Source of the DNA: Mycobacterium phage prophiT36-1 | Strand: one strand, 5' to 3' | Sequence record: OQ417966.1 | Length of the DNA: 64,000 nucleotides | Part shown: piece after piece, positions 9,177 to 45,755 of the stretch | Layout of the letters: each line of letters starts with the position of its first letter | Numbering within the stretch: position 1 is the stretch's first letter | Made by a program: the position numbers and the translations under genes | The notes under the pieces: model-generated | What the model was told of the DNA's origin: nothing | Database searches by the model: none | What the model saw: only the letters and a program-made list of their open reading frames with translations

Positions 9177-9201
9177 CACCCCACCTCGCTAGCTTGAGCC
9201 G

Positions 9202-23904: not shown

Positions 23905-24602
23905 TGCCCGGTATCTACCTCGGCGGCACCGCTATCAAGGCAATGATGCTCGGCGAGAAGGCCATCACCCGGGCGTATCTCGGCGAAACCCTGGTGTGGT
24001 CAGCGAACCGAATCCGCGACGACTTCAACCGCGCTGACGGCGATCTCGGCGTCAACTGGGTGATCAGCCCCAGCATCGACGGCTATAAGCCCAGTGTGGT
24101 CGGCAATGTGTGCCGCCTCGGAGTGCCGGACGGGCTGCTCTCGCTGCAGCTGAACGGCGCTCACGCCCGCTACGTCGCCACGCTGGACCGCGACGACGGC
24201 TATGTGGAGTTCCGCATCGGCAGCCAGGGTTCAGGGCCGAGCCTAACCGGTGACCTGTGTAGAACCACGATCCTGGGGCGCGGGTCCAACAATGCTGTCA
24301 CCGGTGGCGTTGGGGTGCAAATGGATTCATCGACGCTGCGGATCGTGCGGAGGGCCGGGGTGGACACTGTGGTCAAGACGATCGGCACATTCGGCGCTGG
24401 CGATGTCATCCGGCACAACTTCGTCGGGAACGTGCACACGTTCCGCCGCAACGGCAGCCTGCTCGAAGAGTGGAACGACGAGAACGCCACCGCCCCCAAG
24501 GGAACAGGGAACCGGTCGCTGATCATCTCCGTGCAGGGTTCCAAGGATCTTCTGGGGCCACGCAGGTTTGGCCCCGCGATCGACTACGTGGAGATGGGCT
24601 GA
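23904..24602 (+). CDS. Tail fibre/receptor-binding candidate, 232 aa; last gene of the structural module.
   Basis: ATGA overlap with the upstream gene. Position at the distal end of the tail cluster. No motif recognised. Confidence 0.35.
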   Translation: MPGIYLGGTAIKAMMLGEKAITRAYLGETLVWSANRIRDDFNRADGDLGVNWVISPSIDGYKPSVVGNVCRLGVPDGLLSLQLNGAHARYVATLDRDDGYVEFRIGSQGSGPSLTGDLCRTTILGRGSNNAVTGGVGVQMDSSTLRIVRRAGVDTVVKTIGTFGAGDVIRHNFVGNVHTFRRNGSLLEEWNDENATAPKGTGNRSLIISVQGSKDLLGPRRFGPAIDYVEMG

Positions 24603-24832
24603 TGTCGGCCAAGTCCTTCGCGCAGCTCGTCAAGTATCCGCTGTTCTACATCGCGCTGGCCGGGGTCTCGTTCCGGATTGGTTGGTGTGCAGCCCATTAC
24701 GTCAGTGACCGCATGGACAACTTTGATCCAGATATCGGTAGGGGTTATGTTCTGTTGAGACGTTTGTCTTGGAGGTATGTCGATGAGCGATCGAGCGTAT
24801 CGGGTTGTTTACGGAGCTTACGCTGGGCTTGA
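24602..24832 (+). CDS. Small membrane protein ORF, 76 aa, that crosses the left boundary of the duplicated block. The first 46 codons are phage-side and the last 30 codons are inside the repeat.
   Basis: ATGA overlap with the stop of the 23904-24602 gene. One TM-like segment LFYIALAGVSFRIGW. The ORF continues across the 24740/24741 junction and into the first recombinase gene in another frame, so its C-terminus is probably an insertion artefact. Confidence 0.25.
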   Translation: MSAKSFAQLVKYPLFYIALAGVSFRIGWCAAHYVSDRMDNFDPDIGRGYVLLRRLSWRYVDERSSVSGCLRSLRWA

Positions 24833-26171
24833 CGCAGCCGAGGTGCAGTTTCCCGGTGTGACCCGATGCCTTCCATCTGTGGAGCAGCAGTTCGGGGATG
24901 GGTTTCCTGTGCTTGTTGATGCCGATGGTTTGCCGGTGGAGGAATCGTTGGCGTTTCTAGTATCGCGGGTAGGGGCATCGACCTCAACATTGGCGCAGTA
25001 CGCACGCGCTTTGATGGGGTTTGTCGAATTCCTGGGCTACCGGGGGGACGCCCGGCTTTTAGATGCGGCGCCCCGTGACTTGACGGCGTACCGGTTGTAC
25101 CGAACGAGGACGGGGGAATCTCCTGTCTCGGAATACTCGTTCCGGGTGGAAGCCTCGGCACTGCGACAGTTCTATGCGTGGGCAGTTGAGACTGGCCTCC
25201 TGGAGCGCTCTCCTGTCAAGCAGTTGTCACGCAATGGCTGGGACAACCTTTCTACCAACAGAATGCGTCATTCTAAGATTCGTCATGTAGATAAGTTTCT
25301 GTACGAAGCACTGCTGCGAGCGGCTGCTCAGGGCAGCGTGGATGCGGGCGTTCGGAGTGCTTCGCTACGGAATGTGGCTGCAATCAAGACATTTGCAACG
25401 ACTGGGCTTCGCCTTGGTGAGCTTGCGAGCCTTCTGACCTTCGATATTGATCATGCTGTCAGATTGCGCCGGGCGCTATCTGTGGAGATGGAGTCGATCA
25501 CAAAGTACCGAGTCAACCGCAATGCGTTGATTCCGTTCTATGCCACAGACGCGATCCGGCGGTATCGAAAACTTGAGCGCCCTAACGTGGTGGTTCGGCA
25601 TCAGCGCGCGTTGGGCAAACGTCTGGACAGTCTTTTTGTGATCAGCGATTTCAATGAATCCACTCGCCGTGTCTCCGGCCGGTGGCGAGGTCGACGGCAC
25701 CAGTATCTGCTGCATTTGGTGCCTGTTGAGCTGCGGTTGAAGGCTGTTTCAGTTAATTCAAATGGCAGCGTGGAGCCGCTGTGTTTGTTCTTGAGCGATA
25801 GCCGAGGGCAAGGGATGACGAGGTCTGGGTGGGAAGGAGTGTTCTCCGAGGTCAGTGATCAGATGATGCGCCAGGATCCGACGGATGGGCGGATCCGGAA
25901 GGTCACCCCGCATGATCTGCGGCATACGTTCGCTATCAATTATTTGAGGGCGGCCCATGGGGAACGGGCCAAAGTGCTCCAGGAGACACCGTTCAAGGAT
26001 GGGCCGCCGCTGCGTGATCCGTTGATCGATCTTCAAGAGCTGTTGGGACATGCGACCGCAGCACAAACGATGCGTTACTTGAGGTATGTCGAGGACATCG
26101 ACCGACTCATTGCGTCGGCTGTTCCCGGCCAGGGTGATGCGGGAGGGGGCGAGCATGCCCCGCAGAAATGA
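24777..26171 (+). CDS. Tyrosine recombinase, first member of the trio, 464 aa.
   Basis: SD ggagg 6 nt upstream. C-terminal catalytic boxes: LRLGELASLLTFDID (Arg I), PHDLRHTFAINYL (H-x-x-R), LLGHATAAQTMRYLRY (His and Tyr nucleophile). Confidence 0.75.
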   Translation: MSMSDRAYRVVYGAYAGLDAAEVQFPGVTRCLPSVEQQFGDGFPVLVDADGLPVEESLAFLVSRVGASTSTLAQYARALMGFVEFLGYRGDARLLDAAPRDLTAYRLYRTRTGESPVSEYSFRVEASALRQFYAWAVETGLLERSPVKQLSRNGWDNLSTNRMRHSKIRHVDKFLYEALLRAAAQGSVDAGVRSASLRNVAAIKTFATTGLRLGELASLLTFDIDHAVRLRRALSVEMESITKYRVNRNALIPFYATDAIRRYRKLERPNVVVRHQRALGKRLDSLFVISDFNESTRRVSGRWRGRRHQYLLHLVPVELRLKAVSVNSNGSVEPLCLFLSDSRGQGMTRSGWEGVFSEVSDQMMRQDPTDGRIRKVTPHDLRHTFAINYLRAAHGERAKVLQETPFKDGPPLRDPLIDLQELLGHATAAQTMRYLRYVEDIDRLIASAVPGQGDAGGGEHAPQK

Positions 26172-28059
26172 ACGCAAGGACCTCGACCGTGAGGGTGTTG
26201 ACGTTGCGCGAGGCGCCGCCGAATCTCGGCCAGCTGCGGTGGGAGTTCGCAGGCTCGCTCAACCGGGCAGGCCCGGCATGCAGGGGACCGCACAGATAGA
26301 TCCCAGCTCATACCAATGCCGCCGTCTGGCGGCCCAGCTGGCCGACCAGTGGGTTGAGATGGCGGCTGGGCGTTCGCGCTCGGTGATCGCCGTTCACCGT
26401 CAGGCGCTTGATAATTTCCTGAAATATGTTGATAAGTTGCATGATTCAGATGTGAGCCTGGATCATGATCCCGCGGTAGTAATGGCGGTGTTTGATGCAT
26501 GGGCCAAGGATCTGATTGCACTGTATGACGAAAATTCGATCATGCCGTACCGGATGTCGAACATCGTCCAGACACAGATGGCTGGTGCTGTTGTCGATGG
26601 GGTGATCACCGACGAGGTGTTGGCAGCATATGCGCGTGGGCCCGCGGTAGTCCCGAAACCGCGAGCACAACCGCTCGACGAGTTCAGTAAAGACGAACTC
26701 AAGCGCATGGTGCTGGCTGCGCGCGCACATATACGAGCAGCTCGAAAGATCAGGGAATGGGCCACGAAAACTATCCGTGCGTACGAATCTGGGAAATTGA
26801 CCCACGCGGATCAACGCTGTCTGGGCCACATGCTGCAGATGGCTACCCGAGGCGAGCGCATCGCCATACAACAGCCGTGGGATGCACATCCGGAGTCGCT
26901 GCGCGATCTCTTCCCCGACGAGGCCTGGTCGCTTTATCAGGCAACAGGCCTGAACGAGACGAAGAATTCAGTTGCCTTGTCCTGCTACCGCGCGACCCTC
27001 GCCCGGCCAATCGACCTGGTTCCTTATCGGGTATTGCTTATGGCAGGCACAGGCGTTGCAGTGGAAGAGATCTCGGCATTGACTGTGTCAGATATCGAAT
27101 GGCTCGAAGATGGCGTCAGAGTGCAGATGACCAAATCGCGAGCCCGGCGGTCAAAAGGACGGTACTTCCCAGGATCCGCTGAGCGCGGTGGCTGGGATGT
27201 TCCCGCGCTTTTGCAGTCGCTGCTGGATTTCACTGAACCGGTCCGCGCGATCGCAGGTGCACAGTTCCAGGACTGCCTGTGGCTATCGTTCAAGACAAAA
27301 AGACAGTCCCACAGTGAATCTGGTTGCGCCCCGGCTCCCGCAGACTTCGGAACCGCCAACTTGGCATCCTGGATCGATTCGGTCAAGACAGTCCACGACA
27401 TGGGCGATATTTCCACCCCACATGACATGCGGCGGATACGTAAGACAAAGGTCGCCCAGCGTGCAATTGATCTGCGTGGCGCAATGGCCGACATCGCTGG
27501 CGATGACCACACCAGCAGAGTCTTCTTCCAGCATTACGGACAGACAACATCGCTGAAAGTGTATTCAGGATCGGTAATTTCGGGCTTCCAAACCTCACTC
27601 GCTGAGGCAGTAAAGACAGGCTTCACTGCCTTCCTGGACAGACGTGCTGCGGTACCGGCGTCGATCTTGACCGAGGCGCTGCCCATCGAGCCCGCTCAGG
27701 CACACAGTCTGCGCTCCGGTGCTCACGACATGGGAGTTGTCGACTGCCAGAACCCGTTTAACTCGCCCTTTACCAAACAAGGCAAGTTATGTGGGTCCGC
27801 GCCCTTATCATGTCTGATGTGCGAGAACGCGGTTGTCTTCACCGACCATCTCCCCAACATCGTGGCGCTTATACAAGCAATGGACAACGCGAAGCGGTCA
27901 CTGGCACCCGATGACTGGATTGCCACCTGGGGGCGGCAATACGCTGCGGCGCAGGCATTGATGTCATCGGTGCCCGAACGAGCTCGCGCCGCCGCGGCGC
28001 GCAAGGCCGCTGCCGCGGTAACAGATCTGCCGGCCTGGTTGGGGCCGGGTAACCAGTGA
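26155..28059 (+). CDS. Tyrosine recombinase, second member of the trio, about 634 aa from the ATG at 26155; the ORF is open from 26086.
   Basis: Strong SD gggaggggg 5 nt upstream of ATG 26155, overlapping the end of gene A by 17 nt. Boxes LTVSDIEWL (Arg I), MTKSRARRSKGRYF (Lys), TPHDMRRIRKT (H-x-x-R), VFFQHYGQT (Tyr). Confidence 0.7.
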   Translation: MPRRNERKDLDREGVDVARGAAESRPAAVGVRRLAQPGRPGMQGTAQIDPSSYQCRRLAAQLADQWVEMAAGRSRSVIAVHRQALDNFLKYVDKLHDSDVSLDHDPAVVMAVFDAWAKDLIALYDENSIMPYRMSNIVQTQMAGAVVDGVITDEVLAAYARGPAVVPKPRAQPLDEFSKDELKRMVLAARAHIRAARKIREWATKTIRAYESGKLTHADQRCLGHMLQMATRGERIAIQQPWDAHPESLRDLFPDEAWSLYQATGLNETKNSVALSCYRATLARPIDLVPYRVLLMAGTGVAVEEISALTVSDIEWLEDGVRVQMTKSRARRSKGRYFPGSAERGGWDVPALLQSLLDFTEPVRAIAGAQFQDCLWLSFKTKRQSHSESGCAPAPADFGTANLASWIDSVKTVHDMGDISTPHDMRRIRKTKVAQRAIDLRGAMADIAGDDHTSRVFFQHYGQTTSLKVYSGSVISGFQTSLAEAVKTGFTAFLDRRAAVPASILTEALPIEPAQAHSLRSGAHDMGVVDCQNPFNSPFTKQGKLCGSAPLSCLMCENAVVFTDHLPNIVALIQAMDNAKRSLAPDDWIATWGRQYAAAQALMSSVPERARAAAARKAAAAVTDLPAWLGPGNQ

Positions 28060-30542
28060 AGACAGCACAGCTCGGTTCCCCAGGGCCAGTCGCGGCACCG
28101 GTTTCGTCCGACATCTTCGCCGACACCGAAGATGTATTCCTGTCCCGCCCGGACAGGATCGCTGGCGCCCCCGCATGCCTGTTTAGCGAGCAGGTATGGG
28201 ATGCGACGGGTGTGCTGCCTCGGCGCGCTAACATCGGCCGCCATCAATTGCGCATAATCTTTCCGCAGCATCCGGCGTGGTCGCTGCGGTCTCGTGAGAT
28301 TGCGATGACCTTGCTTAACAGCACCGACCCACGGTTGCTCGCACGATCGGTCTCCTTCGGCAGCCGTACGTTCTCCCTGGCGCATGTGCGATCGCGCTGC
28401 GAGACATACAAAACCGTGGCGGCGTGGCAGACAGCTCAAGGCTTACCTGACGACATTTCGGCCTGGGGCGCCCGCGACTGGGTAGCGATGGTCGAAGCCG
28501 AAATCGCCAGGGGCGTCAAAAACGGGACCGTGCGCAATCTCATCTGCGCTATCCGCGACCTTGTCTTCCTTGGGCCCATCTTGACTGGCGGCGGCATCGC
28601 ATCAGACCCATGGAACGGCAAGGCAACGAAACTCATCGCCAAAGGCGCCGTGGCAGGACGAACTGAAGTAATCGCCCCGGCACGTTGGATACCGCTGATA
28701 GGTGCGTGCTGGACATACATCGACACCTTCGCCGAAGACATCCTGAGTCTGCGTGTGAGCCATCAGTGTGACCTGCGCCCCGGCATGCCGGAATGGAGGC
28801 GCCGCTCGGAAGTAAGCGATGACGAGCTGCTCACCGCATACCTGGAGTCCTCCGGTGCCGTTATTCCCGCTAAGACTCGTGACGGTGGCCCGGACCCGAG
28901 CTGGTGGCGCCTATCCAAATTGGTAACCGCCGACCGGTCTTCGGCAATCTTCAAAGAAGACAGGGCAGCGGGGCGCCGCCGCAGAGAGATGGTGTATCAG
29001 GCGCTCGCCAACAACGTGGCCCGTTATGTAGCCCTCACTGCCAGTGAATTCGAAAATCTTTTGGCACAAGGGATTTCCAAGAAACTCGCGGGCAGCGATG
29101 CCGAGACCATAGTACGGATCCAGGGCGCCGACGAGATGCTCGATGCGTGGATTGACGCTGCCAGCAACCGAGTCGCAGTCACGTCCACAGAACTATGCAG
29201 CTCGCCGGGAAAGATCGCTGAAGACGACATCAATTGGGCATTGATGGAACGGATCGTGTTCCGTTCAGAAGGCGTGACTGGCCTGCTCGGGAAGGGCTGG
29301 GCAACCTCTGTCCGCCGCAGGCGCAAACTACTTAAACTCGCCCGCTCAGGCCGAGTTTTCGCATCCGCCAGTGGTGTCGGTGTGATGGGCGTACCGCGCG
29401 ACTGCACTGGCTTCACCCTAGTCGGCGCACCAGGCAGGCAGATCCCTTGGCGGGAATCAATGTCGGACTATGAGGCGCGGTGCGAACTGCGCGCCTTGCG
29501 GGCATCCTGCTATGTCTTCATCGCCGCGATAACAATGATGCGCGACAGTGAGATTCAAGATATGAAGCGAGGCTGTATACGTACCGATTACGGCGTCGCT
29601 TCTGTGAAATCACACCTTTACAAGGGGCGTTCGGGCAAGACGGTCGCACACTGGTGGATCATCGATGAAGTAGCCACAGCAATCAGAGTGCTGGAACGAC
29701 TCAGCTGTCATCCAGAGTATCTGTTCGCACGATTCGTCGACGGAGAACTCGAGAATCCTGAACCCGGTATCAGGTCAGGACTCGAGATTGCGTTTCTGCT
29801 CGATCATTTGGCGGCCACCGGCGCCCGAAGCGGGATCGCACCGGTGCCCGAGGGGCCCGTGATTTCCGCGCGAGCTCTGCGCCGTACCACTGCATCCATC
29901 AGCCGCGAACTGGGAGGCAACGAGCTTGCGGTAAGTCATCAACTCAAACACGCCATCAACTACGGCTACTCGAACGTTACCAGCGCCTATATGGCACCAG
30001 ACCCGGCATGGGCAGACCTGCTCAACACCAACAGGTCCGAGGACAACCTTGAGCACATGGTGACCGTCGTGCAGCAGTCCGCGCGCACCAGCGCCTCCTT
30101 GGCCGGTCGCGGCGGTGAGCGGCTGACCCAACAGATTGCCCAAGCGGTCGAACAGAGCGCAGGCCCTGGATACCCCGGTTCGGTGCTCTCCGATGAGGAG
30201 CTAGCCATCCTGCTGAGAAAAATCGCGCCGCAGATCCGTTTCGGACCTGCCAACGCGTGTCTGTACGACGAAGAGAACGCGCTATGTCGGCGCGATGCCA
30301 CCACCGAAATCCAGGGGCCGCTTCTGGGACTGTGTCAACCGTCGCGCTGCGCAAACTCGGTGATCGGTACCGAACACATGCCTGTGTGGGTCACCGAGTT
30401 GCAGACATTGCAGAAGACCATCGCCAGCCCCCGCGTGAGTCCGCCTCGACGACAGGCACTTTCAGAACGAATCACCGACGTACAGCACGTACTGAGCCAG
30501 CTCCAAACACGACCGCAAGCGGGCGACCATGGGCAGCCGTGA
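28056..30542 (+). CDS. Tyrosine recombinase-like protein, third member of the trio, 828 aa.
   Basis: GTGA start/stop overlap with gene B. C-terminal segment TMMRDSE (Arg I), KSHLYKGRSGKTV (Lys), ARALRRTTAS (box II Arg), VSHQLKHAINYGYS (His and Tyr). The large N-terminal extension is of unknown function. Confidence 0.6.
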   Translation: MKTAQLGSPGPVAAPVSSDIFADTEDVFLSRPDRIAGAPACLFSEQVWDATGVLPRRANIGRHQLRIIFPQHPAWSLRSREIAMTLLNSTDPRLLARSVSFGSRTFSLAHVRSRCETYKTVAAWQTAQGLPDDISAWGARDWVAMVEAEIARGVKNGTVRNLICAIRDLVFLGPILTGGGIASDPWNGKATKLIAKGAVAGRTEVIAPARWIPLIGACWTYIDTFAEDILSLRVSHQCDLRPGMPEWRRRSEVSDDELLTAYLESSGAVIPAKTRDGGPDPSWWRLSKLVTADRSSAIFKEDRAAGRRRREMVYQALANNVARYVALTASEFENLLAQGISKKLAGSDAETIVRIQGADEMLDAWIDAASNRVAVTSTELCSSPGKIAEDDINWALMERIVFRSEGVTGLLGKGWATSVRRRRKLLKLARSGRVFASASGVGVMGVPRDCTGFTLVGAPGRQIPWRESMSDYEARCELRALRASCYVFIAAITMMRDSEIQDMKRGCIRTDYGVASVKSHLYKGRSGKTVAHWWIIDEVATAIRVLERLSCHPEYLFARFVDGELENPEPGIRSGLEIAFLLDHLAATGARSGIAPVPEGPVISARALRRTTASISRELGGNELAVSHQLKHAINYGYSNVTSAYMAPDPAWADLLNTNRSEDNLEHMVTVVQQSARTSASLAGRGGERLTQQIAQAVEQSAGPGYPGSVLSDEELAILLRKIAPQIRFGPANACLYDEENALCRRDATTEIQGPLLGLCQPSRCANSVIGTEHMPVWVTELQTLQKTIASPRVSPPRRQALSERITDVQHVLSQLQTRPQAGDHGQP

Positions 30543-30927
30543 GGAAATCCGTGCCGCGATGGAACGCCTCCTAAACGGCGACGCCCAGCACACCGACGGA
30601 CGCCTAACCAAAACCAACCTTGCGGTAGAAGCCGGCGTGGGTCGGGCGACCCTCTACCGCCAGCACGACCTGATGGCCGAATGGGCGCGCCGCGTCACCG
30701 AATCAGACATCGCCCCACCCGCCGCGTCTGCCGCGGCCACGATCGCACACCTGACCCGACAGCTGGCCGACGAACGCTCCCGCCGCCGCGAATCCGACCG
30801 CATCGCCAACGGCCTGGCCTTCGTGGTAGCCGAGCTCTACCGCGCGCTAGAGGCTCGGACTCCCCCAAATTCTTCACGCGGCACGATCATCCCGATAAAC
30901 GCCAAAACGCGAAGGCGCGCAGACTAG
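30529..30927 (+). CDS. Small HTH protein, 132 aa, TetR-like, translationally coupled to the recombinase trio.
   Basis: 14-nt overlap with the end of gene C. N-terminal KTNLAVEAGVGRATLYRQH matches the TetR-type HTH signature (AG-V-x-x-x-T-L-Y). Confidence 0.5.
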   Translation: MGSREEIRAAMERLLNGDAQHTDGRLTKTNLAVEAGVGRATLYRQHDLMAEWARRVTESDIAPPAASAAATIAHLTRQLADERSRRRESDRIANGLAFVVAELYRALEARTPPNSSRGTIIPINAKTRRRAD

Positions 30928-30988
30928 CCTGAGCCCATTTCACATACGAGCGAATGAGTTCATTGCTGATCGAAGCAGTACGGGATTC

Positions 30989-33900
30989 GTGCGTGGGAGC
31001 GGTGCCCGCCATGAATGGACAGCGCCGGCATCTGATCGGGACCGTTCGAGCGCGACTTACGTGGGGAGAGGTTACGTGGCCGACAGCCAGGCACTTCGGA
31101 AAGTTCGGTATGCAGACAAGTTCCGGGGCTATCAGGGCCAGGCTATTGCTATGGCCCGGAAGTATCGGCGCAGCTTCCACGACGAGGACGGCGCGCAGGG
31201 GCTTGATGCCGCATTGGTTTACCACCCCACGGGTACGGGCAAGACAGCCGTCATTGCCGGTCTAACGCACGCGGCACACGAAATCGGCAATGTCCTGGTG
31301 CTGACCACACGCGAAGTCATACGTGATCAACTGGTGCGCGAGCTCAGCGGTGGCCTCTTCATTGACGAGAACAAGTTCGCGCTGCCCATGCGCCACAAAC
31401 TTTCTAAGGTCTGCTTCGCGGTGGCCGAGTCCCGCCAATTACTCGGCACAGCATTAGCGTTGCATGCGGCGACGCGAAAACGCATCCCCGACCAGGTGGT
31501 CCGGGAGTTCAGTCAGCGGCAGTTCGAGCGGCTTGCACCCGAGCCCGACATCGACATCGTGAGCCACTTGCATGAACAGAACTCTGTTCTCATTCTCACC
31601 GTCCAAATGCTGGCCCGCTTGCACCGAGGCCGCACCGGGCAGTCACCGATATACGACGTCTTGCGTCAACACGTAGACCTGGTCGTCTTCGACGAAGGAC
31701 ACTACGAACCTGCACCGCGCTACAGCGAGGCAGTGCGGGATCTAGGGCGCCCTACTGTGCTGTTGACCGCTACCCCTTTCCGTAACGACCTGAAAGCTTT
31801 TCGCATCACACCCGAGCATGTCGACATTTATCGATTCACCCAGGCGGTGCAGCAGCAGCACATCAGAGAAGTCCAGATCGTGCAGCGCACACCGACACGT
31901 GACCCGGACAAGTTCTGCGCCGATGTTCTCGATTTCTGCACATCGGTGTGGGGACCCGATCCAGGGCAGTGGACCCGCCGGATCATTATTCGCTGCGACG
32001 ATGTCGAGTGCGTAACACGCCTTGGCGAAGCATTCATAGCCCATGGCTTCAAGGACCGAGTCATCGGCATCCATGACCGCTACACCAACCCTGGGCAAGG
32101 CGACGGGCAGCCATGGCAATACCGCACAGTCCCAGCGCCGTCGGAAACCCAAGCACTAGTATGGATTCACCAGCATAAACTGCTAGAGGGCGTCGATGAT
32201 CATCGCTTCCAGATTCTGGCTTTCTTCAACCCACCGACCAATGTGCGCGCCATTGTCCAACAAATCGGCCGAGTCGTAAGGACCAAGCCTGGTGGCCAAG
32301 ACGCAGGCAACGCATACGTTTTGGACTATTTCGCCGGGCGCATCGCTAGATACTGGAGTCTATATCGCGGGTATGACGCTGCAGCCACGCCCGAGGCAGT
32401 CACTATGACCGCATCACGGTTCTACCTCACGAGATTCACCGCTGCACTGCCGCAGTTCGATTACATCGACCAAAAGTTTCGCCAGCGGCTCGATCTGTTC
32501 GACCACGACCAGCAAGCCCAGCTCACTGACACCATCGCCGACGAGATCTTCTTCAAGCGCACTGTGGCACTTAGACAGATACCAAACACCCTGACGATCC
32601 AGGACGTTGTCCCGCTTCTCGAGATCGCCCTTAAGGAAGGCGATTACGAGTACCAGCGATTCGATGTGTCGAAGATATGCCCCAATACCGCTCTATTCCT
32701 GTGTTCCCGGGTGAACAATGTCGACTTTCTCAACACTTACTTCTTCCCCGAGCCGCACCTAGAAGCCCGGCTCGTGATGCTCTTCCCAGAACACGCACTG
32801 CTGGCCTCGACAAGTACAGCAGGCGCATCGGTCAAAGATGGACTAGGGATTCTTGCGCGGTACGATCCGACCCGACTTGAGCGACTCCTATTGCCGGGCA
32901 ACGATAACCGGGGACGCATCACCAGCGTTTCCTCTAAGAACATGAACCTCAGTAGCCGGGCAGTGCGCGGTCGGGTCGTCTACGCAGCATCCATGGCTGA
33001 CATCCCGGCAGCCCTCGATGAGCACGGCCATGTCGTCTCCACGGTCACCGGCTACAACGGCTCGGCTCCACAGGTCATAGACCACCTCGAATACCAAGTA
33101 AGTGTGTTGGCCGATGAACTTGCCAGATCAGGGGCGACCACCGAAGGGCCTGGCACTGGTGCAACCCTTGTGCGCCGTTACGTGGGCATCGCAAGCGGTC
33201 ACGTGACTGAGTACCTTCCACCACTGCGCATCAAGGCATTCCGTACTTGGGTGCAATCACTGGCGAACCAGATGGATGACCCCGCACGCTATGACCGAGT
33301 CTTTAGTCGCTACGCCGAGCTCGCGGTAGGCGAGACGGTCTCGGGCGCAGCCCAGAACCTGCTATTGGACTTCACCGAGCTCACCGAGCTCTACCGGCAC
33401 CGCCTCACCGGCCAATGCGTTATCAGCGATGATGTGTGCGCCGACAGATTAGGCGATCCATACGGTACACCCGAACAGCCTGCGGCACAGTTCATCATGA
33501 CGATAAATGACACCCCATACACAATAGCCGCCACCTTCAACACCTCGTCCAAGCGGTACCGCATCGAGTGCCCGGCGCTCGACTATGACTTCATCCCGAT
33601 CGATGACCGCGACGGCTCGTTGATACGTGCGATAAACCAGATGCAGGCTTTCACGGTGGTCCCAGAGGACCGAGATCGCATCTACGCGCACGGGAGCTTC
33701 TATGCGCCGTCCCTGAAGTTCGGGCCAGACCGATTTAACCCCAACGGTTTCCCTATCGGACACCTGCTTTACCCCTCGCAACAGTTCAAGTCTAAAGAGA
33801 CAGAAAAAGGGGATAAAGTCATTGGCGGCAACCGTTACCAGACACACAGCCTGTTCGGCCTGATCGACAGCTGGAAGTCAGGTTTCGATACCGCAGAACT

Positions 33901-34474
33901 CGATCTCGACCCTCACTGGGTGCGGCGCAGTGGCTATGTCCCTGAATCGCTCTCGTTTTCACCCACTGCGCTCATCGTGGACGACATGGGTTGCGAATGC
34001 GCCGATTTTATTATTGCCGACACGCTCGGGCGGCGGGTTGTGCTGATTCATGGCAAGGCATCCGAGACGTGGCGCCCGTATTCGGCCTCAGCTCTGCAGG
34101 AGATCTGTGCGCAGGCTCAAAAGAACACAGCGCTGTTCTCCTCGCGTGAGCCCCGCATGCCGCCAAACATCACCTTGTGGGACAAGGCACACAACTTCAA
34201 CAACCTGTCGGTAGCTAAACGAATCCGGAAGCCGAACAGAGATACGGCGGAGAGGATTTGGCACGACCAACTGGCGCCGCTGTTAGCCAACCCACTCACT
34301 TCGCGCGAGATCTGGCTGGTGCTTGGCAACATGCTGTCGGCCTCAGAGATCATCGCGCAACTAAAGACTGACCGGCCTGCCGCCGAAGTCCTACAGCTAA
34401 CGCAACTACTGCACACCACAATGGAAGCCGCACGCGGCGTAGCAGCAAATCTGCGAATCTTCTGTTCGCCATAG
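30989..34474 (+). CDS. SF2 (ResIII/DEAD-like) helicase fused to a large C-terminal region with a putative PD-(D/E)xK-like nuclease motif, 1161 aa. Candidate single-protein defence helicase-nuclease.
   Basis: Helicase motifs in order: FRGYQGQAI (Q-like), HPTGTGKTAV (Walker A/I), LVVFDEGHY (II, DEGH), LLTATPF (III), QQIGRVVRT (VI). C-terminal segment IVDDMGCECADFIIADTLGRRVVLIHGKAS resembles D ... E-x-D ... K of restriction-endonuclease folds. GC is lower than in the phage module. The start codon is uncertain (GTG 30989 or the in-frame ATG at residue 55). Confidence 0.65.
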   Translation: MRGSGARHEWTAPASDRDRSSATYVGRGYVADSQALRKVRYADKFRGYQGQAIAMARKYRRSFHDEDGAQGLDAALVYHPTGTGKTAVIAGLTHAAHEIGNVLVLTTREVIRDQLVRELSGGLFIDENKFALPMRHKLSKVCFAVAESRQLLGTALALHAATRKRIPDQVVREFSQRQFERLAPEPDIDIVSHLHEQNSVLILTVQMLARLHRGRTGQSPIYDVLRQHVDLVVFDEGHYEPAPRYSEAVRDLGRPTVLLTATPFRNDLKAFRITPEHVDIYRFTQAVQQQHIREVQIVQRTPTRDPDKFCADVLDFCTSVWGPDPGQWTRRIIIRCDDVECVTRLGEAFIAHGFKDRVIGIHDRYTNPGQGDGQPWQYRTVPAPSETQALVWIHQHKLLEGVDDHRFQILAFFNPPTNVRAIVQQIGRVVRTKPGGQDAGNAYVLDYFAGRIARYWSLYRGYDAAATPEAVTMTASRFYLTRFTAALPQFDYIDQKFRQRLDLFDHDQQAQLTDTIADEIFFKRTVALRQIPNTLTIQDVVPLLEIALKEGDYEYQRFDVSKICPNTALFLCSRVNNVDFLNTYFFPEPHLEARLVMLFPEHALLASTSTAGASVKDGLGILARYDPTRLERLLLPGNDNRGRITSVSSKNMNLSSRAVRGRVVYAASMADIPAALDEHGHVVSTVTGYNGSAPQVIDHLEYQVSVLADELARSGATTEGPGTGATLVRRYVGIASGHVTEYLPPLRIKAFRTWVQSLANQMDDPARYDRVFSRYAELAVGETVSGAAQNLLLDFTELTELYRHRLTGQCVISDDVCADRLGDPYGTPEQPAAQFIMTINDTPYTIAATFNTSSKRYRIECPALDYDFIPIDDRDGSLIRAINQMQAFTVVPEDRDRIYAHGSFYAPSLKFGPDRFNPNGFPIGHLLYPSQQFKSKETEKGDKVIGGNRYQTHSLFGLIDSWKSGFDTAELDLDPHWVRRSGYVPESLSFSPTALIVDDMGCECADFIIADTLGRRVVLIHGKASETWRPYSASALQEICAQAQKNTALFSSREPRMPPNITLWDKAHNFNNLSVAKRIRKPNRDTAERIWHDQLAPLLANPLTSREIWLVLGNMLSASEIIAQLKTDRPAAEVLQLTQLLHTTMEAARGVAANLRIFCSP

Positions 34475-34510
34475 TTGTTGCTACAGAGTATAAATCAAGA
34501 TCTGCCGGAC

Positions 34511-34768
34511 TCAGTGGTCGGCGAAGAAGTCGCCCGCTGAAGCATCCAACGCCTCCGCAATGTCGACGAGGCGTTCATACAGAAGTCCCCGGCGGCCGTG
34601 CTCGACGTCAATGAGTACGTTGCGAGTCACACCCGACGCCAACGCGAGCGCCTCTTGAGTCAGGCCCCGCGCAAGACGCAACGCGCGGATGCGGGCGCCG
34701 ACCGCCTGCCGAGTATGTTCCCAGGCAATCACACGCTCGGGATCGTTCTGCTGAGGGCGGGTAGGCAT
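34511..34768 (-). CDS. XRE-family HTH transcriptional regulator, 85 aa.
   Basis: Classic HTH_3 signature LRLARGLTQEALALASGVTRNVLIDVEHGRR. Convergent with the helicase gene and divergent from the 246-aa gene. Confidence 0.75.
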   Translation of the reverse strand: MPTRPQQNDPERVIAWEHTRQAVGARIRALRLARGLTQEALALASGVTRNVLIDVEHGRRGLLYERLVDIAEALDASAGDFFADH

Positions 34769-34778
34769 TAACCCAGTT

Positions 34779-35519
34779 ATGGAGCGCCCGTACCAAAAGT
34801 CTGCCCTACTAGTAGTACATTGCTGTGTTGTGTTTGAATTCGATCCCGAAGATGCGTCTGTAGAGACTGTTTCGGCACTGGCCCTGGATGCGATGGACGA
34901 GCTGCGCAGGAAGTTGATCGAATGCCTTCTGGTGTTGCAAACGTTGTCTGATGAAGCTGATCTGAATTTCGTCGATCTAATTAGCGATCTGCAGGCCGTT
35001 CACCGAGGTACTCAAGAGGCGTATCGAGCAGCTAGTCTGGTGCATCAGGGTGCTCAGCTAGACGGCCGATGGGGTAACAGTTTGTCCAAGCCCAAAGCCG
35101 TTTTCGCTCGCCATAATTCAGCAGTGCGTCGCGGCGCCAAAAAGGTAATCCCGATGTCGGCACCATCTGACCTGGTGGAGCAGAGTTTGTATCACTTGCC
35201 CAAGCCCGACCGCGTTCAAGCAACCGTGGGTGACCGGCCCCAATGCGCGGGCACCGTTCGTTCCACAGGTGAAAGCTGTGCCAGCTCCGCCATGTATCTG
35301 GGTTCGGGAGCATTTGCAGCGCACTGTTATTCGCACGCTACTCCCGCTGAACGTGAGCGGTACAGGGTCTATCACAAGGAGATTGATGCGCGACGTGCGC
35401 GCACATATGACGATTTGCGCGAGCGTCAGTGGGCGGTCGGTCGCGAGATTCTCGCTCACTGGATCTCTAGTCGCGAACATGGCATCGAGTGGCTTGAGAA
35501 AGCTATCGCTGAAGTTTAG
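34779..35519 (+). CDS. Hypothetical protein, up to 246 aa, with a Cys/His cluster suggesting a zinc ribbon (C-x10-C ... H-C-x2-H).
   Basis: The ORF is divergent from the XRE gene; the true start is probably an internal ATG near 34893. Segment PQCAGTVRSTGESCASSAMYLGSGAFAAHCYSH. No known family recognised. Confidence 0.4.
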   Translation: MERPYQKSALLVVHCCVVFEFDPEDASVETVSALALDAMDELRRKLIECLLVLQTLSDEADLNFVDLISDLQAVHRGTQEAYRAASLVHQGAQLDGRWGNSLSKPKAVFARHNSAVRRGAKKVIPMSAPSDLVEQSLYHLPKPDRVQATVGDRPQCAGTVRSTGESCASSAMYLGSGAFAAHCYSHATPAERERYRVYHKEIDARRARTYDDLRERQWAVGREILAHWISSREHGIEWLEKAIAEV

Positions 35520-35876
35520 AAGCGCAGGGCGTTTTACTGCTCCTTCACGAGCGCACGGGCAGGAGTCACAACGATTCCGTCAGCCAATCGGACCGCGAGT
35601 GGGCTACGCCACGTAGAGCGAAGATCATTTACACAGATTGGGCATCTAAGTCTTTGCCCTGCGATGAAATGCTCGTTGTTTCGGACGACGCGCACCCATG
35701 ACGGAAGCTGCCGACAGGATGCCTACCCTTGGCCGAACGAAACATTGAGGCAGTCCTGCAAGCGCAGCGAGGACGGTCGGCGGGCCTCCAGTGTGCGGGC
35801 AGGACATCACGGTGATCTTGCGGGCTGTTGGGCTGGCCCGCTCTGCCTCGACGGCCCGTAAGGGCACGTAATTCGT

Positions 35877-37649
35877 TTGCTCTTTACGGGCGGTCGCGTA
35901 GCTTTGTTTTGTGTTCCTTTCCATCCGGGGCCATTGGCTTGCCGCTTTACGTATCTTGGACCGTTGGTGAAGCTGCGGCGCCTGACGCGGCGCGAAACAA
36001 ACGAGAGCCTGCGCCGGCGATGGGCATTTTTTCAGGCGCATCTTCGCGACGAATTTGTCCACTCCGCACAAGGCGAGCAGGTACTCAAGTACGCCTTTGA
36101 GTTGCGCCGGGTTAATCGGCCAGATACTGATGTCGAACATTTCAAGGCGGTGGTCGCTGCCGAGCGTGACGTGTGCGAGGCGCGGGCACGAGCAGCTCTA
36201 GACCGGGTGAACCCGGCCAGTGTTCTGGTGCTGGGGGTGATTCTTGAGCGCGCCGGTCAATCGCGTTACCGGCAGTTCCTGGGCGCGTTTGGGATGTCGC
36301 GGCTCGTATGGTTGATCGGAGCGGCCGGCGGGGGCACTGGACCTCTCGGTGAAGGTATTCGAGAGTTCTTCGATTGTGCAGTGCCCTGGTTAGCTGTTAC
36401 CGCATTGGAAAGTGAGCTGTGGTGGCAGCCCACGGGACGTGACCCTGATGATGCGACCGTGACAGCGGTTGGTTCGCGCATGGTCAATGCGCATACCCGC
36501 CTGTGGTGGGGCTCGTTGATGGTCGCGCGCTCACTGCTGCGGCAGGCACGCCGACCCGAGTTACCCGAAACGATCGTCCCGGAGCTGGTGCAGTATCTCG
36601 TCGCAGCCAACGGGGCCAACCTGCGCGAGCGCGCAGAATTCATTCTGCCGCCGCTGAGCACTCAGGCCCGCACATTTGCGACCGCATGTTCAGTGCGGGC
36701 CGGTCAGTACGCGGGCCGTCGGCTCGATGACCTGGTCAATACCCGCATTGACGGTGAGAGCTCGGGTGGGCAACCGTGCGAGACTTACCCGTTCATTCTC
36801 GTAGGTGAGCAGCTCGTGCCGGCCACGATCTATGTCTTGCGCGGCAGCCTGCACGTTATGTTCGTGGACTACCTGCGTAGAACGCTCAAAGACGAAGGCT
36901 CCCAAATCTTTGAGCGCACGTGCGGGGACCTGATCCGTGAGCTGCTGGGCACGGACGGTGAAATGCTCACCGACGTCAATATTCGGATATCCCATGCGGA
37001 ACGAAAACATAAGGGCCAAACTGATTTCGCGGCACTTTGGCAATCAGTCCTGCTTATCGGGGAGGTTAAGGCTGCGTTGGAGCCGGTCTTGCCACGTAAA
37101 TCTGGGGCGTCCTATGACCGTGACGTGGGTAAAGCATTCACGCAGCTCAATGAGCGATTGGCCGCCGCAGCTGCCGGAAGCTCGGTGTCGGCGGCCGGTC
37201 GGATGGTTAAGGCCGAAGAATATTCACAAGTGCGAGGACTTGGGGTGGTGATGCACGATTTCGGCGGCGAGATCTGGCGGCATAGAGCACATGGCGGGAA
37301 GTTCAAAGACTCTGCAAGACTGCCGATTATTACGGTCCAGGACCTCGCAGTGATCGCTCACACATTGAGCGGGATGGATGAGTTTCTCCGGTACCTGGAC
37401 TTCCGTCAGCAGCTCCTGGGGGCAGGTGTGCGGGCTATGGAGGAGTTCGACATTCTCGCCGGTTTCCTGGCGCGAGGCCCGGGCCCGGGTCAGCAGCTTA
37501 CTCGTGCGCAGAGGCGTGCGACACGAAATGGCAAAGGGCACATCAGGCTTGCGGCCCGCGCTGTTCCCTTGTCTTTGCAGCATGTCTTCGAGCCGCCGGT
37601 GGATAAAGCTGGCTGGCGTCAGATCGTCGCCGGAATGCCCAGGGTCTGA
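35877..37649 (+). CDS. Hypothetical protein, up to 590 aa, with a PD-(D/E)xK-type nuclease motif; candidate effector or partner of the downstream OLD-family gene.
   Basis: Segment ERTCGDLIRELLG ... GQTDFAALWQSVLLIGEVKAALEP fits E ... D-x12-E-V-K of the restriction-endonuclease fold. Same strand and adjacent to the 601-aa gene. The start is uncertain (the N-terminal ~60 aa look non-protein-like). Confidence 0.45.
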   Translation: MLFTGGRVALFCVPFHPGPLACRFTYLGPLVKLRRLTRRETNESLRRRWAFFQAHLRDEFVHSAQGEQVLKYAFELRRVNRPDTDVEHFKAVVAAERDVCEARARAALDRVNPASVLVLGVILERAGQSRYRQFLGAFGMSRLVWLIGAAGGGTGPLGEGIREFFDCAVPWLAVTALESELWWQPTGRDPDDATVTAVGSRMVNAHTRLWWGSLMVARSLLRQARRPELPETIVPELVQYLVAANGANLRERAEFILPPLSTQARTFATACSVRAGQYAGRRLDDLVNTRIDGESSGGQPCETYPFILVGEQLVPATIYVLRGSLHVMFVDYLRRTLKDEGSQIFERTCGDLIRELLGTDGEMLTDVNIRISHAERKHKGQTDFAALWQSVLLIGEVKAALEPVLPRKSGASYDRDVGKAFTQLNERLAAAAAGSSVSAAGRMVKAEEYSQVRGLGVVMHDFGGEIWRHRAHGGKFKDSARLPIITVQDLAVIAHTLSGMDEFLRYLDFRQQLLGAGVRAMEEFDILAGFLARGPGPGQQLTRAQRRATRNGKGHIRLAARAVPLSLQHVFEPPVDKAGWRQIVAGMPRV

Positions 37650-38019
37650 ACTCGCCGCAGGACCCGGGAACGGCCGACCTCCGCTAAGCCTGCCTGCCCA
37701 GTGCATCGGTGGGTCGGTAGTGGTTTGGGACTGTGTCTGATTGCCAGCCATTCGGATTGGGCGAGCTATGCCTGACAGTTCGCACCTGACTCTCGCTGTC
37801 AGTTGTCGCCCACATACCGCTCCAACGCTATCCAGACTGGTCCTGGCACTTCCGAAGTAGCGACGTACTGTGATCTTTCAGTTCAGAACAGTGTTTACGC
37901 GGGGGTCCTTCGCGGCAGCTCCTCGCAAAGTCGGCGGCCGGTAGATATTGTGTCGCACTGCGACAACAATCAGATTCAGATCCCACCGTCTACCTGTCGC
38001 GTCTAACTGAGGGGGTTCC

Positions 38020-39825
38020 ATGACGGCTGAGCCAGCACCGCTCGGCGAAGGCATCGCCGAGCACTTCGGGTTTGCTATTGCGGGGGTCAGAGTCGGTGAT
38101 GGTGAGATGCTCGACTTGCCTGGAGCGGGGAGCGTCATAGCTGTTGTGGGGGCGAACAATGCCGGAAAGTCCACGTTCCTACGTCAATTGCAGGAGATCT
38201 TGGCGTGGCACGGACTCACCAAGGAAATGACGCCCCGCGTTGTTACGGAAATCGCGGAGCCATGGGTTGGTTCGGTCGAAGATTTCACCGCGTGGCTGAT
38301 CGCTAACGCCCAGATTGACGAGCACACGGGTCTAAGGAATGTGACCCGCAACGGCACTCACCCGCAAATACCGTTGCAGAACACTGCCTCGATCCGGAAC
38401 CAACCCACACCTGGCGCTGTCCTGCACTGGTTTGTCGGCAATCATCAGCCAGGCGACCGGCAACACGCCTGTTCGATGTCAGGTAGAGCTGACCCGGCAG
38501 GATTACCCCCACAGACACCCATGCAGGCCCTGTTCGCAGACATACCGAAACGCAAAAAGGTGATTGACCTCGCTGCCCGCTTGTTCGGCGTTCAACTGCA
38601 CTTCGATACCGTCAGTGCGTCTATCGGCTTCCGTATCGGCAAACCCGACTTGCCGGCGCCAAACGTTAACGAGATAGACGCTCAGTATGCTCGCGCGGTT
38701 GGAAAACTGCCACCTCTGATCGAACAAGGTGACGGCATCAAGTCAGCGCTCGGCCTCTTGATCCCTCTGATTACCAACGCGAACCCGCTGTCGATCGTGG
38801 ACGAACCCGAGGCCTTCCTCCACCCACCGCAGGCAGAGCTTCTCGGCTTCGAGATAGGGAAAATTGCTCGGGACAACAGATCCCAGGTTGTCCTCGCGAC
38901 TCACGACAAGAATCTTCTGCAGGGGATCGCGAGGAGTGGAGCCCCCGTATCGATTATTCACTTACAGCGAGCTGGAGACACCACGACGGCTATTCGTCTC
39001 GGGGCCGAAGATATCGAAGACCTCTGGAAAGATGTGACCCTTCGGTATGGCAATGCGCTCGACAGCCTATTTCATCGCGCGGTCGTCATCACCGAAGGTG
39101 ATCGGGATTCGCACTTTTTTCGTGCGGCGATTGATGCGGTTCATGAGGGCATACACCCGCAGCCTCCCGCACACAACCTGATGTTTCTAAGCAGCTATGG
39201 CAAGCAGAACATGGCGCACATCGTCGAACGTCTTCGAAAGCTGGGCGTACGGGTCGTCACATCTCCCGACCTCGACATTCTCAACAACGAAACGCTGCTG
39301 CGCCGGCTCGTTGTTGCCCACGGCGGCGACTGGAACTCGATCATGCAGCTTTACAAGCAGGCAACGAACGAATTCCTCGGTCCTGCAAAGCCTCCCACGA
39401 TCGACGACGTACGCACAAAGATTGATGACGCCCTGAGTAAATCGACCGATGGCGTCTTGGACAGGCCTTTAGCTCAGGCGCTAGCTGTGGCCGTTGCGCT
39501 CCCAACAACAAACTGGGGCAAGCTAAAAGAGGCCGGCACCCGGGCATTTAATGCAGACAAGAAATCGGCGACTGAACTTCTGGATGCTCTGGACGCGATC
39601 GGCATCGTTGCCGTCAAGGTCGGGGAGCTGGAAAAGTTTGTAACAAACGCTAACCCGCCAAAAGGCCCCGAGTTCCTCCCTGTCGCCTTCGCTGCGGGAG
39701 CGCACATCGCGCCGGAGGCAGGGGAACATGCAAATCGGCTATTGATAGCAGCCGGAATCACGGTTCCAGAGACGCGCCCTGTTCACGATCAATGCTTGCC
39801 CGCATGCGCCCAGACCTCAGGCTGA
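38020..39825 (+). CDS. OLD-family nuclease (overcoming lysogenization defect; P2 Old-like, class 1 architecture): N-terminal ABC ATPase plus C-terminal Toprim domain, 601 aa.
   Basis: Strong SD gaggggg. Walker A VVGANNAGKSTFL. OLD/ABC Walker B signature LSIVDEPEAFLHPPQ. H-loop VVLATHD. Toprim glutamate AVVITEGDRDSHFF. Toprim DxD VVTSPDLDILN. This order and spacing are diagnostic of OLD-family ATPase-Toprim proteins. Confidence 0.8.
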   Translation: MTAEPAPLGEGIAEHFGFAIAGVRVGDGEMLDLPGAGSVIAVVGANNAGKSTFLRQLQEILAWHGLTKEMTPRVVTEIAEPWVGSVEDFTAWLIANAQIDEHTGLRNVTRNGTHPQIPLQNTASIRNQPTPGAVLHWFVGNHQPGDRQHACSMSGRADPAGLPPQTPMQALFADIPKRKKVIDLAARLFGVQLHFDTVSASIGFRIGKPDLPAPNVNEIDAQYARAVGKLPPLIEQGDGIKSALGLLIPLITNANPLSIVDEPEAFLHPPQAELLGFEIGKIARDNRSQVVLATHDKNLLQGIARSGAPVSIIHLQRAGDTTTAIRLGAEDIEDLWKDVTLRYGNALDSLFHRAVVITEGDRDSHFFRAAIDAVHEGIHPQPPAHNLMFLSSYGKQNMAHIVERLRKLGVRVVTSPDLDILNNETLLRRLVVAHGGDWNSIMQLYKQATNEFLGPAKPPTIDDVRTKIDDALSKSTDGVLDRPLAQALAVAVALPTTNWGKLKEAGTRAFNADKKSATELLDALDAIGIVAVKVGELEKFVTNANPPKGPEFLPVAFAAGAHIAPEAGEHANRLLIAAGITVPETRPVHDQCLPACAQTSG

Positions 39826-41963: not shown

Positions 41964-42116
41964 CAAATACCGTATGACGACGACCGTCCCACGAGCTCCG
42001 GAAGGGCACTCCCCTCCCGCCGCGAGGCTGCGAGCAGCCGCACCATACATCGCGGGTGTTGACCAAACCAGTTGGTGAACTCGAGCTAGTAGCAACCCAG
42101 GTCCCGACAGACGATC

Positions 42117-45705: not shown

Positions 45706-45755
45706 ATAGCAGACCGGAATTACGGCTGCTACCGATTATATTCATTCGAGGGGAT

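Follow-up and report, generated by a model that had tools for sequence, protein, structure and literature searches.

Integrative elements of the strand-biased circularizing kind (SEs), such as SE-6283 and SE-6945, carry the core genes intA-tfp-intB-srap (Nonaka/Idola et al.; PMC9345347 and PMC10214605). In those papers, Tfp is the product of the second gene and has a recombinase fold with an incomplete catalytic set, IntB is large, and Srap joins a weakly TetR-like N terminus to a coiled coil. The same papers give a 6-bp rule for integration: the center of attB stays beside motif C in attL, while the 6 bp brought by the donor go beside motif C′ in attR. GInts (ginABCD; also Tn6571-family elements) are described by Bardaji et al. 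2017 (PMC5385486) as having imperfect direct repeats of 10 to 17 nt and a third-gene product, GinC, without the first catalytic Arg. Here, we report on four genes, and on the element that they border, in a stretch of 64,000 nucleotides from Mycobacterium phage prophiT36-1 (OQ417966.1), which we refer to in full as the window. We conclude that the region probably serves as the recombination module for a site-specific integrative element of 22,761 bp, which is of the SE type, has the core intA-tfp-intB-srap, and belongs to an actinobacterial lineage. It is not a recombinase in trio (RIT) element and, judged by sequence, does not appear to be a GInt.

The insertion that contains these genes has been reported before. 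Amarh et al. 2023 (PMC9934374) described prophiT36-1 of the completely sequenced Mycobacterium abscessus T36 as carrying a large insertion in which a 22.5-kb segment with 18 genes is duplicated in direct orientation. Of its integrase-like products, one is a typical tyrosine integrase, another is an integrase extended at the C terminus, and the third has a small domain resembling an integrase. They proposed only a recombination event mediated by one of the integrase-like proteins, and their account neither assigns the insertion to a family of elements nor gives its ends, att sites, target in the chromosome, or distribution in other genomes. The tandem insertion is thus already published and is not new as a raw observation. 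New relative to the literature searched are the classification of that insertion, the SE machinery in Actinomycetota and its trio-only relatives in alphaproteobacteria, the terminal motif, the tadA-like target, and the phage attB. We find a discrete element whose inverted ends are conserved and which occurs at two insertion sites, in monomeric and dimeric forms; one of these sites is also seen empty. Its module is homologous to that of SEs and has a defined pattern of catalytic residues.

The four-gene module and its counterparts in described elements

The module comprises four co-oriented open reading frames (ORFs) on the plus strand, of 464, 634, 828, and 132 aa, which overlap by 17 nt, 4 nt (GTGA), and 14 nt. 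An earlier note on this DNA had given the same coordinates, overlaps, and sizes of the three large proteins and had placed the trio 36 bp inside the repeat boundary, all of which was reproduced by the ORF listing and a self-BLAST of the window. It was also right in seeing a mobility module with several recombinases at the very end of a repeated, mobile block, as opposed to an ordinary prophage integration module. Gene 1 (24777 to 26171) probably begins at the second ATG, at 24783 and 42 bp inside the boundary, and encodes 462 aa, because a GGAGG at 24770 to 24774 precedes this ATG by 8 nt and 462 aa is the length predicted by gene callers. No database record holds the exact 464-aa protein, since gene callers use the 462-aa start. 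Gene 2 (26155 to 28059; 634 aa) starts at an ATG whose MPRRxER beginning is kept in homologues, gene 3 (28056 to 30542; 828 aa) starts at GTG, and gene 4 (30529 to 30927; 132 aa) ends the module. Because gene 1 begins only 36 to 42 bp from the left end, the module has to be transcribed from the flank or, in a circle or dimer, from the 330-bp noncoding right end. A simple scan of the junction for sigma-70 promoters found none.

All three large proteins had been credited earlier with R...K...HxxR...Y catalytic boxes, which is accurate for gene 1, nearly so for gene 3, and incorrect for gene 2. Gene 1 encodes an IntA-like canonical tyrosine recombinase, as assigned from Pfam, its catalytic set, and profile matches. 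The Phage_integrase and Phage_int_SAM searches proposed in the earlier note place it above threshold (Phage_integrase, 9e-12; Phage_int_SAM_1, 3.5e-8), and gene 3 yields only a subthreshold Pfam signal. In NCBIfam, gene 1 is XerC/XerD-like under the cutoffs, and its alignment contains the complete R..K..HxxR..H..Y set.

Gene 2 encodes a Tfp-like degenerate protein of the recombinase fold with a C-terminal Cys4 cluster, as assigned from alignments and profile matches. Arg-I (the site reads TGVAVEE) and His-I are absent in all actinobacterial and alphaproteobacterial members aligned, and the same alignments show K327, R427, R429, H452, Y461, and C531/C546/C553/C556 to be invariant. The protein has 585 relatives among 1.84 billion cluster representatives; the Pseudomonas Tfp clusters are not among the best 150 of these.

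Gene 3 encodes an IntB-like large tyrosine recombinase, as assigned from an alignment, an AlphaFold model, and profile matches. It consists of a long N-terminal part, a catalytic domain at about residues 480 to 650, and a C-terminal Cys cluster. Among 14 aligned homologues, R496 (in MRDSE), K523, R609, H632, Y645, and four C-terminal Cys residues are invariant. The overall pattern is R-K-(R/H)xxR-H-Y, with R606xxR609 in this protein; the His-I position is occupied by Arg in mycobacteria and by His in the Streptomyces and Pseudomonas homologues. The AlphaFold model has a predicted local distance difference test (pLDDT) score of 74, and its top 27 fold matches in the PDB are all tyrosine recombinases (XerH, Cre, Tn1549 Int), with weak E-values. 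A sequence search of gene 3 against the PDB returned only spurious SecE matches.

Four-Cys clusters are located at residues 531 to 556 of gene 2 and 735 to 765 of gene 3 and also occur in SE-type proteins of Pseudomonas and Klebsiella. These clusters may form a zinc-binding module. The accessible text of the SE and GInt publications (PMC9345347, PMC10214605, and PMC5385486) makes no mention of them.

Gene 4 encodes a Srap-like accessory protein with a TetR-type helix-turn-helix (HTH) and a long C-terminal helix, as assigned from its motif, a structural model, and profile matches. It has no match in Pfam or NCBIfam. The N-terminal HTH is strongly conserved (LTKENLAREAGVSxATxxRA...W), and the model (pLDDT 82) places helices at residues 4 to 58 and 65 to 110, forming a small HTH bundle and one long helix. 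In the PDB, its fold comes closest to TetR-family regulators, namely to their DNA-binding heads, and to BusR, an HTH/coiled-coil protein, with nonsignificant E-values of 0.4 to 2. The earlier label “TetR-like” applies to the HTH only and does not extend to the rest of the protein. The gene 4 family comprises at least 529 clusters; all 120 among those listed are from Actinomycetota and bear hypothetical or generic automatic names.

We compared the module with those of SE type using profile hidden Markov models (HMMs) built from actinobacterial homologues only and scored at Z = 1e6. Against the modules of the Pseudomonas aeruginosa plasmids pPA30_1 and p3796A, the HMMs matched four consecutive genes, each by its positional counterpart, with 36 to 49 bits for gene 1, 41 to 50 bits for gene 2 (E, 6e-9 to 8e-12), 41 to 60 bits for gene 3, and 21 to 26 bits for gene 4. 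The scores for genes 1 to 4 against a Klebsiella pneumoniae plasmid module were 136, 128, 138, and 24 bits. Cross-matches of noncorresponding genes reached at most 10 bits. The gene 3 HMM matches Pseudomonas IntB in collinear segments, and the gene 4 match to Pseudomonas and Klebsiella gene 4 spans the full length. Adding two alphaproteobacterial sequences to the HMMs raised the scores, with Pseudomonas Tfp rising to as much as 79 bits and IntB to as much as 85 bits. The gene 4 product of pPA30_1, WP_009681707.1 (171 aa), is the PGAP similarity reference for a Srap orthologue in the tfp-srap list of the SE paper, and a 563-aa Tfp accompanies that listed protein, with the spacing seen in the Pseudomonas module.

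The architecture of the region had initially suggested a GInt, an element with three recombinase-like genes and a small protein at the 5′ end, cargo, and a short 3′ end, which integrates site specifically with short imperfect direct repeats and is excised as a circle. The architecture is indeed the same, the GinD protein of Pseudomonas syringae also has 132 aa, restriction-modification and addiction-type cargo is common in GInts, and those of Escherichia coli carry defense systems. However, the four HMMs found no significant match to GinA to GinD of two E. coli families (Sakai and IAI1), with a faint 13 bits between the gene 4 HMM and IAI1 GinD, while the same HMMs match SE modules. GInt membership was dropped after these tests. 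The protein without Arg-I is the third in GInts (GinC) but the second here, as in SEs, and the SE authors place GInt and SE proteins in separate similarity clusters (PMC9345347 and PMC10214605). We favor placement with the SEs over the GInts because the HMMs match gene for gene and because of the order of the catalytic and noncatalytic members, and we regard a GInt as improbable.

The earlier note had recognized the organization of a RIT element in the three adjacent, overlapping recombinase-like genes, while pointing out that the second and third proteins are much larger than those of canonical ones. The sizes are as it said (462/634/828 aa versus 410/454/333 aa in the canonical trio of Sphingobium pSHV1), but the attribution failed: that canonical trio scores only 7 to 17 bits against the profiles, which amounts to generic recombinase similarity. 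A RIT element is expected to have three complete recombinases of ordinary size, usually without cargo. Neither the sizes found here nor a degenerate second protein, a fourth gene, and a 16-kb cargo are in keeping with this, and RIT membership was rejected as having practically no probability. The suggestion of a distinct, larger-format trio family is borne out as to the format but not as to its being undescribed, since both GInts (ginABCD) and SEs (intA-tfp-intB-srap) have been published.

Another candidate is a Tn554-type transposon of the actinobacterial class of Van Houdt et al. 2012 (PMC3414803), which combines an ordinary and an abnormally long tyrosine recombinase with a TnpC-like protein. 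The long recombinases of this class have 611 to 828 aa and are found mostly on actinobacterial plasmids, with copies in M. abscessus. SEs and Tn554 are also alike in having a footprint of 6 bp, in being specific for their targets, and in encoding a small accessory protein. The fourth gene had rightly been called a positional analogue of Tn554 TnpC, and the SE authors compare Srap in the same way (PMC10214605). However, the class has two recombinase genes and no Tfp counterpart, whereas a Tfp-like gene is present here in every related locus with an intact module. On this comparison, which is by description only, we consider a Tn554-type transposon very improbable.

Element ends, insertion sites, and the dimer junction

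The left part of the window (positions 1 to 24740/24744), including the capsid-to-minor-tail genes, is 100% identical to prophiT48-1 (OQ417964.1) of M. abscessus T48. There, the prophage continues uninterrupted through gene 81 (52 aa), gene 82, lysin A, and lysin B, providing the empty site GATATCGGTAGGGGGAAGTACGG. By identity to prophiT48-1, the 3′ part of gene 81, which encodes a hypothetical protein, occupies 24602 to 24743 of the plus strand on the host side of attL and ends in ...GATATCGGTAGGG. The insertion swaps the C terminus of gp81 from ...PDIGRGKYGW* to ...PDIGRGYVLLRRL... and 28 more residues (window 24602 to 24832 versus prophiT48-1 4603 to 5039). The insertion point is 10 bp upstream of the gene 82 start. 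Prophage attP of prophiT36-1 is still detectable in culture supernatants (PMC9934374).

Self-BLAST of the window shows that 24741 to 41232 recurs at 47509 to 64000 with 100% identity over 16,492 bp; the repeat is direct and head to tail, and its period is 22,768 bp. With the inverted repeats at both ends included, copy 1 extends from 24744 to 47504 (plus strand) and has 22,761 bp, the same length as a single copy in M. abscessus FVTO01000001.1. Copy 2 (47512 to 64000, plus strand) is 100% identical to copy 1 and runs past the window end, so that it is incomplete here; the complete second copy in prophiT36-1 is described in PMC9934374. On the left, identity to the M. abscessus chromosomal copies begins at 24742, and on the right it stops at 47509.

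An assembly artefact or the prophage’s own integration/excision system could instead account for the repeat and the module. The copies are 100% identical, as a collapsed or misjoined circular contig could produce. However, the tandem comes from a completed genome in which a second tandem exists elsewhere (PMC9934374), and the same element is found as a single chromosomal copy in many assemblies; on these grounds the artefact was rejected. Further points against this account are otherwise identical prophages without the element and the fall in GC content from about 65% to about 59% at the repeat boundary, at 24.7 kb; we consider it highly improbable.

The earlier note had anticipated terminal inverted repeats of about 100 bp. 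None were found; the ends instead form an imperfect inverted repeat of about 25 to 28 bp that consists of two short boxes. The left terminal motif, which resembles motif C, reads GTTATG-N15-TGTCTTG (24744 to 24771, plus strand; found by motif search and in relatives). The right one, which resembles motif C′ and was found by motif search, reads inward GTTATG-N14-TGTCT(CT), that is, GTTATG-N14-TGTCTCT (47480 to 47504, minus strand). Together, they can be summarized as inverted GTTAKG-N14/15-TGTCTC. The pattern GTTAKG-N13-16-TGTCT occurs three times in the window, in each case at an element end, compared with 0.07 occurrences expected. A 10-nt inverted pair is also present at 47461 to 47470 (CGTCTCAACA) and 47521 to 47530 (TGTTGAGACG). 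The right end is noncoding over about 330 bp and is not AT rich (33 to 47% AT up to the terminal motif and 53% across it). The layout is thus tripartite, with the module, the cargo, and a short 3′ end, and the flanking direct repeat is just 4 to 6 nt long.

The termini are conserved among relatives. In about 24 related actinobacterial loci, GTTAKG-N15-TGTCTCA precedes gene 1 by 100 to 120 bp, and where related elements in different contexts can be compared, similarity begins at the terminal motif or at most about 30 nt from it. A 9.85-kb element shared by Amycolatopsis and Prauserella carries the same motif, GTTATG...TGTCTC, inverted at both ends (locus positions 6439 and 16288). Flank comparison gave no left end in five Amycolatopsis/Prauserella loci because the surrounding 6.5 kb is identical too, and the terminal-motif search gave both ends. 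Some Streptomyces members (five loci) have the left-end motif GTTAGG-N15/16-TGTCTCA twice, 66 bp apart (at 6492 and 6558 in one locus), upstream of gene 1. The doubled motif may represent two binding sites or a nested end.

The chromosomal target, GGC GGC ACG GGC GCG GGC AAG ACC ACG, encodes the Walker A sequence GGTGAGKTT of a T2SSE/TadA-like ATPase in a Tad-pilus locus. The element splits this tadA-like gene within the Walker A codons (GGTGAG|KTT; contig coordinates 6091 to 6777 or about 11687 to 12316), and the chromosomal flanks read ...GGGC-GCGG|element|GCGG-GCAAG. The exact gene 4 protein is present in 867 collection blocks, and the tadA-like context was seen in all of the 24 long M. abscessus contigs read. 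This Walker A coding stretch is the home site of the element in M. abscessus, and a whole lineage probably has no intact copy of the tadA-like ATPase gene. At the phage site, the left junction is ...GGTAGGG|GTTATG, with the phage’s own attB bases (TAGGG/G) retained. The two targets share GG-NNNGGG-NAAG and differ at three of the six central positions.

With regard to the 6-bp rule, the internal junction of the tandem keeps the chromosomal GCGG beside C′, although fingerprint and footprint are identical at the chromosomal site. The tolerance of heterology and the retention of target bases at the left end would be as the SE/Tn554 rule predicts. The same left junction could also be obtained by conventional exchange followed by repair. 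Under the SE rule, the outer right phage junction would read ...ACATAAC, followed by the donor bases GCGG... and then (G)GAAGTACGG. Scans of viral contigs for the tandem junction and for this predicted outer attR returned no match.

The right end of copy 1 and the left end of copy 2 abut with the spacer GCGGGGG (47505 to 47511) between them, which gives the junction ACATAAC-GCGGGGG-GTTATGT. This junction (window 47498 to 47518) is palindrome-like with a 7-7-7 layout, 7-nt arms around a 7-nt spacer, and resembles a textbook core site. The spacer is 3 G longer than a simple attL × attR joint, given that the chromosomal copies have GCGG on both sides. Simple models, namely a plain attR × attL joint or a second insertion into a resident attL or attR, were rejected, as they are off by 2 to 3 nt or contradict the outer attL. 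The spacer can be read in two parts, the chromosomal GCGG beside the right end and then the GGG found before the left end at the phage site. Such a composition would fit an exchange between unequal positions in the G runs on either flank, or the use of a secondary nick site, and either origin is possible. The SE papers report that secondary nick sites are used at low frequency (PMC9345347 and PMC10214605). The whole tandem is present again at another locus of the T36 chromosome, between T36_00429 and T36_00464, and related copies occur in other genomes of subsp. massiliense (PMC9934374). Its occurrence at both T36 loci makes it probable that the dimer moved, or was copied, as a single unit.

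Several observations weigh against assignment to the SE type. The link is made through Pseudomonas and Klebsiella modules that are called SE-type from an orthologue list and gene sizes, not through SE-6283 or SE-6945, and the match of gene 4 to Srap is modest (21 to 26 bits). Gene 2 keeps Arg-II, His-II, and Tyr, while the Tfp of the SE paper is without RHRY, making the functional equivalence inexact. The relationship is distant, since the SE authors’ PSI-BLAST searches found no Tfp or Srap homologues outside Gammaproteobacteria. The dimer spacer has 7 nt between 7-nt arms (9 nt between ACATAA and TTATGT), whereas an SE attS should have 6 nt. Because the window ends before the outer attR of the phage insertion, the SE footprint there is a prediction. 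Finally, a bias toward one strand, the formation of circles, and the lack of an empty donor site would be extrapolated from the Vibrio SEs. We nevertheless hold an SE-type element to be by far the best account of the locus.

Relatives and cargo of the element

The same gene order, with 1- or 4-nt overlaps, was found in about 40 loci from species-representative genomes, including those of Streptomyces, Amycolatopsis, Kitasatospora, Mycobacterium, Tomitella, Prauserella, and Kutzneria among others. Four-gene versions are present on actinobacterial and gammaproteobacterial plasmids, and trio-only versions of about 450/596/737 aa, without a gene 4-like ORF, on alphaproteobacterial plasmids (Sphingobium pSHV1 and a Rhizobium plasmid). 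In the literature searched, 14 papers mention SEs, and none of them reports SEs in Actinobacteria. On pSHV1, the large-format trio (1836 to 7182) lies 1.3 kb from the canonical RIT trio (8507 to 12098), offering a side-by-side contrast of the two trio types.

Five species-representative genomes, of Amycolatopsis spp. and Prauserella muralis, share 13 to 19 kb at 99.6 to 100% identity around the 9.85-kb element. This identity points to very recent transfer of a larger carrier, for example, a plasmid or an integrative and conjugative element. In Streptomyces, two loci with almost the same sequence carry different numbers of copies of an 18-nt tandem repeat (CACCGTCACCGCTACACC) beyond the downstream end of the module, at about 18450 to 18520 in one and about 18450 to 18590 in the other.

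The cargo genes of the prophiT36-1 element occupy 30989 to 47177 overall and were annotated with Pfam and PADLOC. The first (30989 to 34474, plus strand) encodes a ResIII/SNF2 helicase of 1161 aa whose C terminus matches the PADLOC defense candidate PDC-S71 (2e-25), followed on the minus strand by an XRE-type HTH gene (about 34511 to 34768; precomputed Pfam). Further along are genes for an OLD-family ATPase-TOPRIM protein (38020 to 39825; PADLOC Old, 3e-19), an Amidohydro_2 protein (about 40386 to 41039), a fusion of TnsA_N with sigma-70 region 4 (42117 to 43721), an Ntox33 polymorphic toxin (44118 to 45305), and, overlapping the toxin gene, a DUF4279 immunity protein (45295 to 45705). Hypothetical proteins of 246, 560/590, 188, and 141 aa are encoded within the same interval. 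The annotations suggest that the cargo is an island for defense against phages and for competition.

Candidate transposition route and comparison with known systems

Strand-biased copy-out transposition is the route that we infer for the element by analogy with the Vibrio SEs. The IntA-like and IntB-like proteins of genes 1 and 3 would be the two catalytic recombinases, responsible for cutting and joining, the Tfp-like protein is probably an architectural or regulatory subunit, and the Srap-like protein may be an HTH and coiled-coil accessory factor. As in SEs and GInts, all four proteins would act together; the Tfp-like and Srap-like proteins could bind or organize the ends, with the two terminal boxes as candidate binding sites. 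Exchange between attL and attR on one strand, followed by replication, would yield a circular copy while the donor stays in place, leaving no empty site. The circle would then integrate at short G-rich targets of the form GG-NNNGGG-NAAG. If the Vibrio model applies, the 6 bp of the target would stay beside the left end, and the 6 bp carried by the donor would be placed beside the right end.

A broader proposal, which we advance as speculative and rather doubtful in its entirety, is that SE-type elements extend beyond Gammaproteobacteria as a large unrecognized actinobacterial clade, commonest in Streptomyces and with its own termini, together with an alphaproteobacterial trio-only version. In this proposal, the T36 dimer may be a product or intermediate of copy-out, comparable to the (IS30)2 and IS21 tandem dimers, and may have moved as a unit between chromosome and prophage. 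Such movement of the dimer, if true, would suggest phages as a vehicle for otherwise nonmobilizable elements. SEs and GInts are recently recognized carriers of resistance, virulence, and defense genes, and the published host range of SEs is “a subset of Gammaproteobacteria.” The four-gene machinery with recognizable ends in Actinomycetota would widen the family across phyla, and the residues and end motifs conserved across phyla are now defined. This classification would also account for the “peculiar insertion” that had been published without being classified, in a prophage of clinical M. abscessus, and would make Streptomyces and mycobacteria tractable systems for testing the strand-biased mechanism. 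For M. abscessus itself, a Tad-pilus ATPase gene that is split in every chromosomal contig read, together with anti-phage and toxin cargo, is relevant to phage-therapy susceptibility.

Compared with GInts, the element differs in its host, as these are reported in Proteobacteria, Bacteroidetes, Firmicutes, and Verrucomicrobia but not in Actinobacteria (PMC5385486). With Tn554-type elements it shares a TnpC-like small protein, site specificity, and occurrence in Mycobacterium, Streptomyces, and Rhodococcus (PMC3414803). It is unlike the described SEs in being hosted by Actinomycetota, whereas those are reported only from Gammaproteobacteria, with no Tfp or Srap homologues found in Alpha- or Betaproteobacteria. 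Its proteins are larger (462/634/828/132 aa versus about 376/560/630/170 aa), the IntB-like protein of the mycobacterial clade has Arg at His-I, and the Tfp-like protein retains Arg-II, His-II, and Tyr. The terminal motif GTTAKG-N15-TGTCTCA and the head-to-tail dimer with a 7-nt spacer are further differences.

The likenesses to SEs concern both the module and the element as a whole. Four co-oriented, overlapping core genes lie at the left end in the same order, each homologous to its Pseudomonas and Klebsiella counterpart. They encode an ordinary and a large complete tyrosine recombinase, an Arg-I-less recombinase-fold protein between them, and a small protein with a TetR-like N terminus and a coiled-coil C terminus. 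Both kinds of element have short imperfect terminal inverted repeats, 13 to 19 bp in SEs (motifs C and C′) and the GTTATG-N14/15-TGTCT boxes here, which correspond in layout. Both use few specific target sites, here the tadA-like Walker A site and phage gene 81, retain target bases beside the left end, and carry no conjugation or mobilization genes. At 22.8 kb, the element also falls within the size range of SEs with defined ends, which is 6.4 to 58.5 kb with a median of 15.7 kb.

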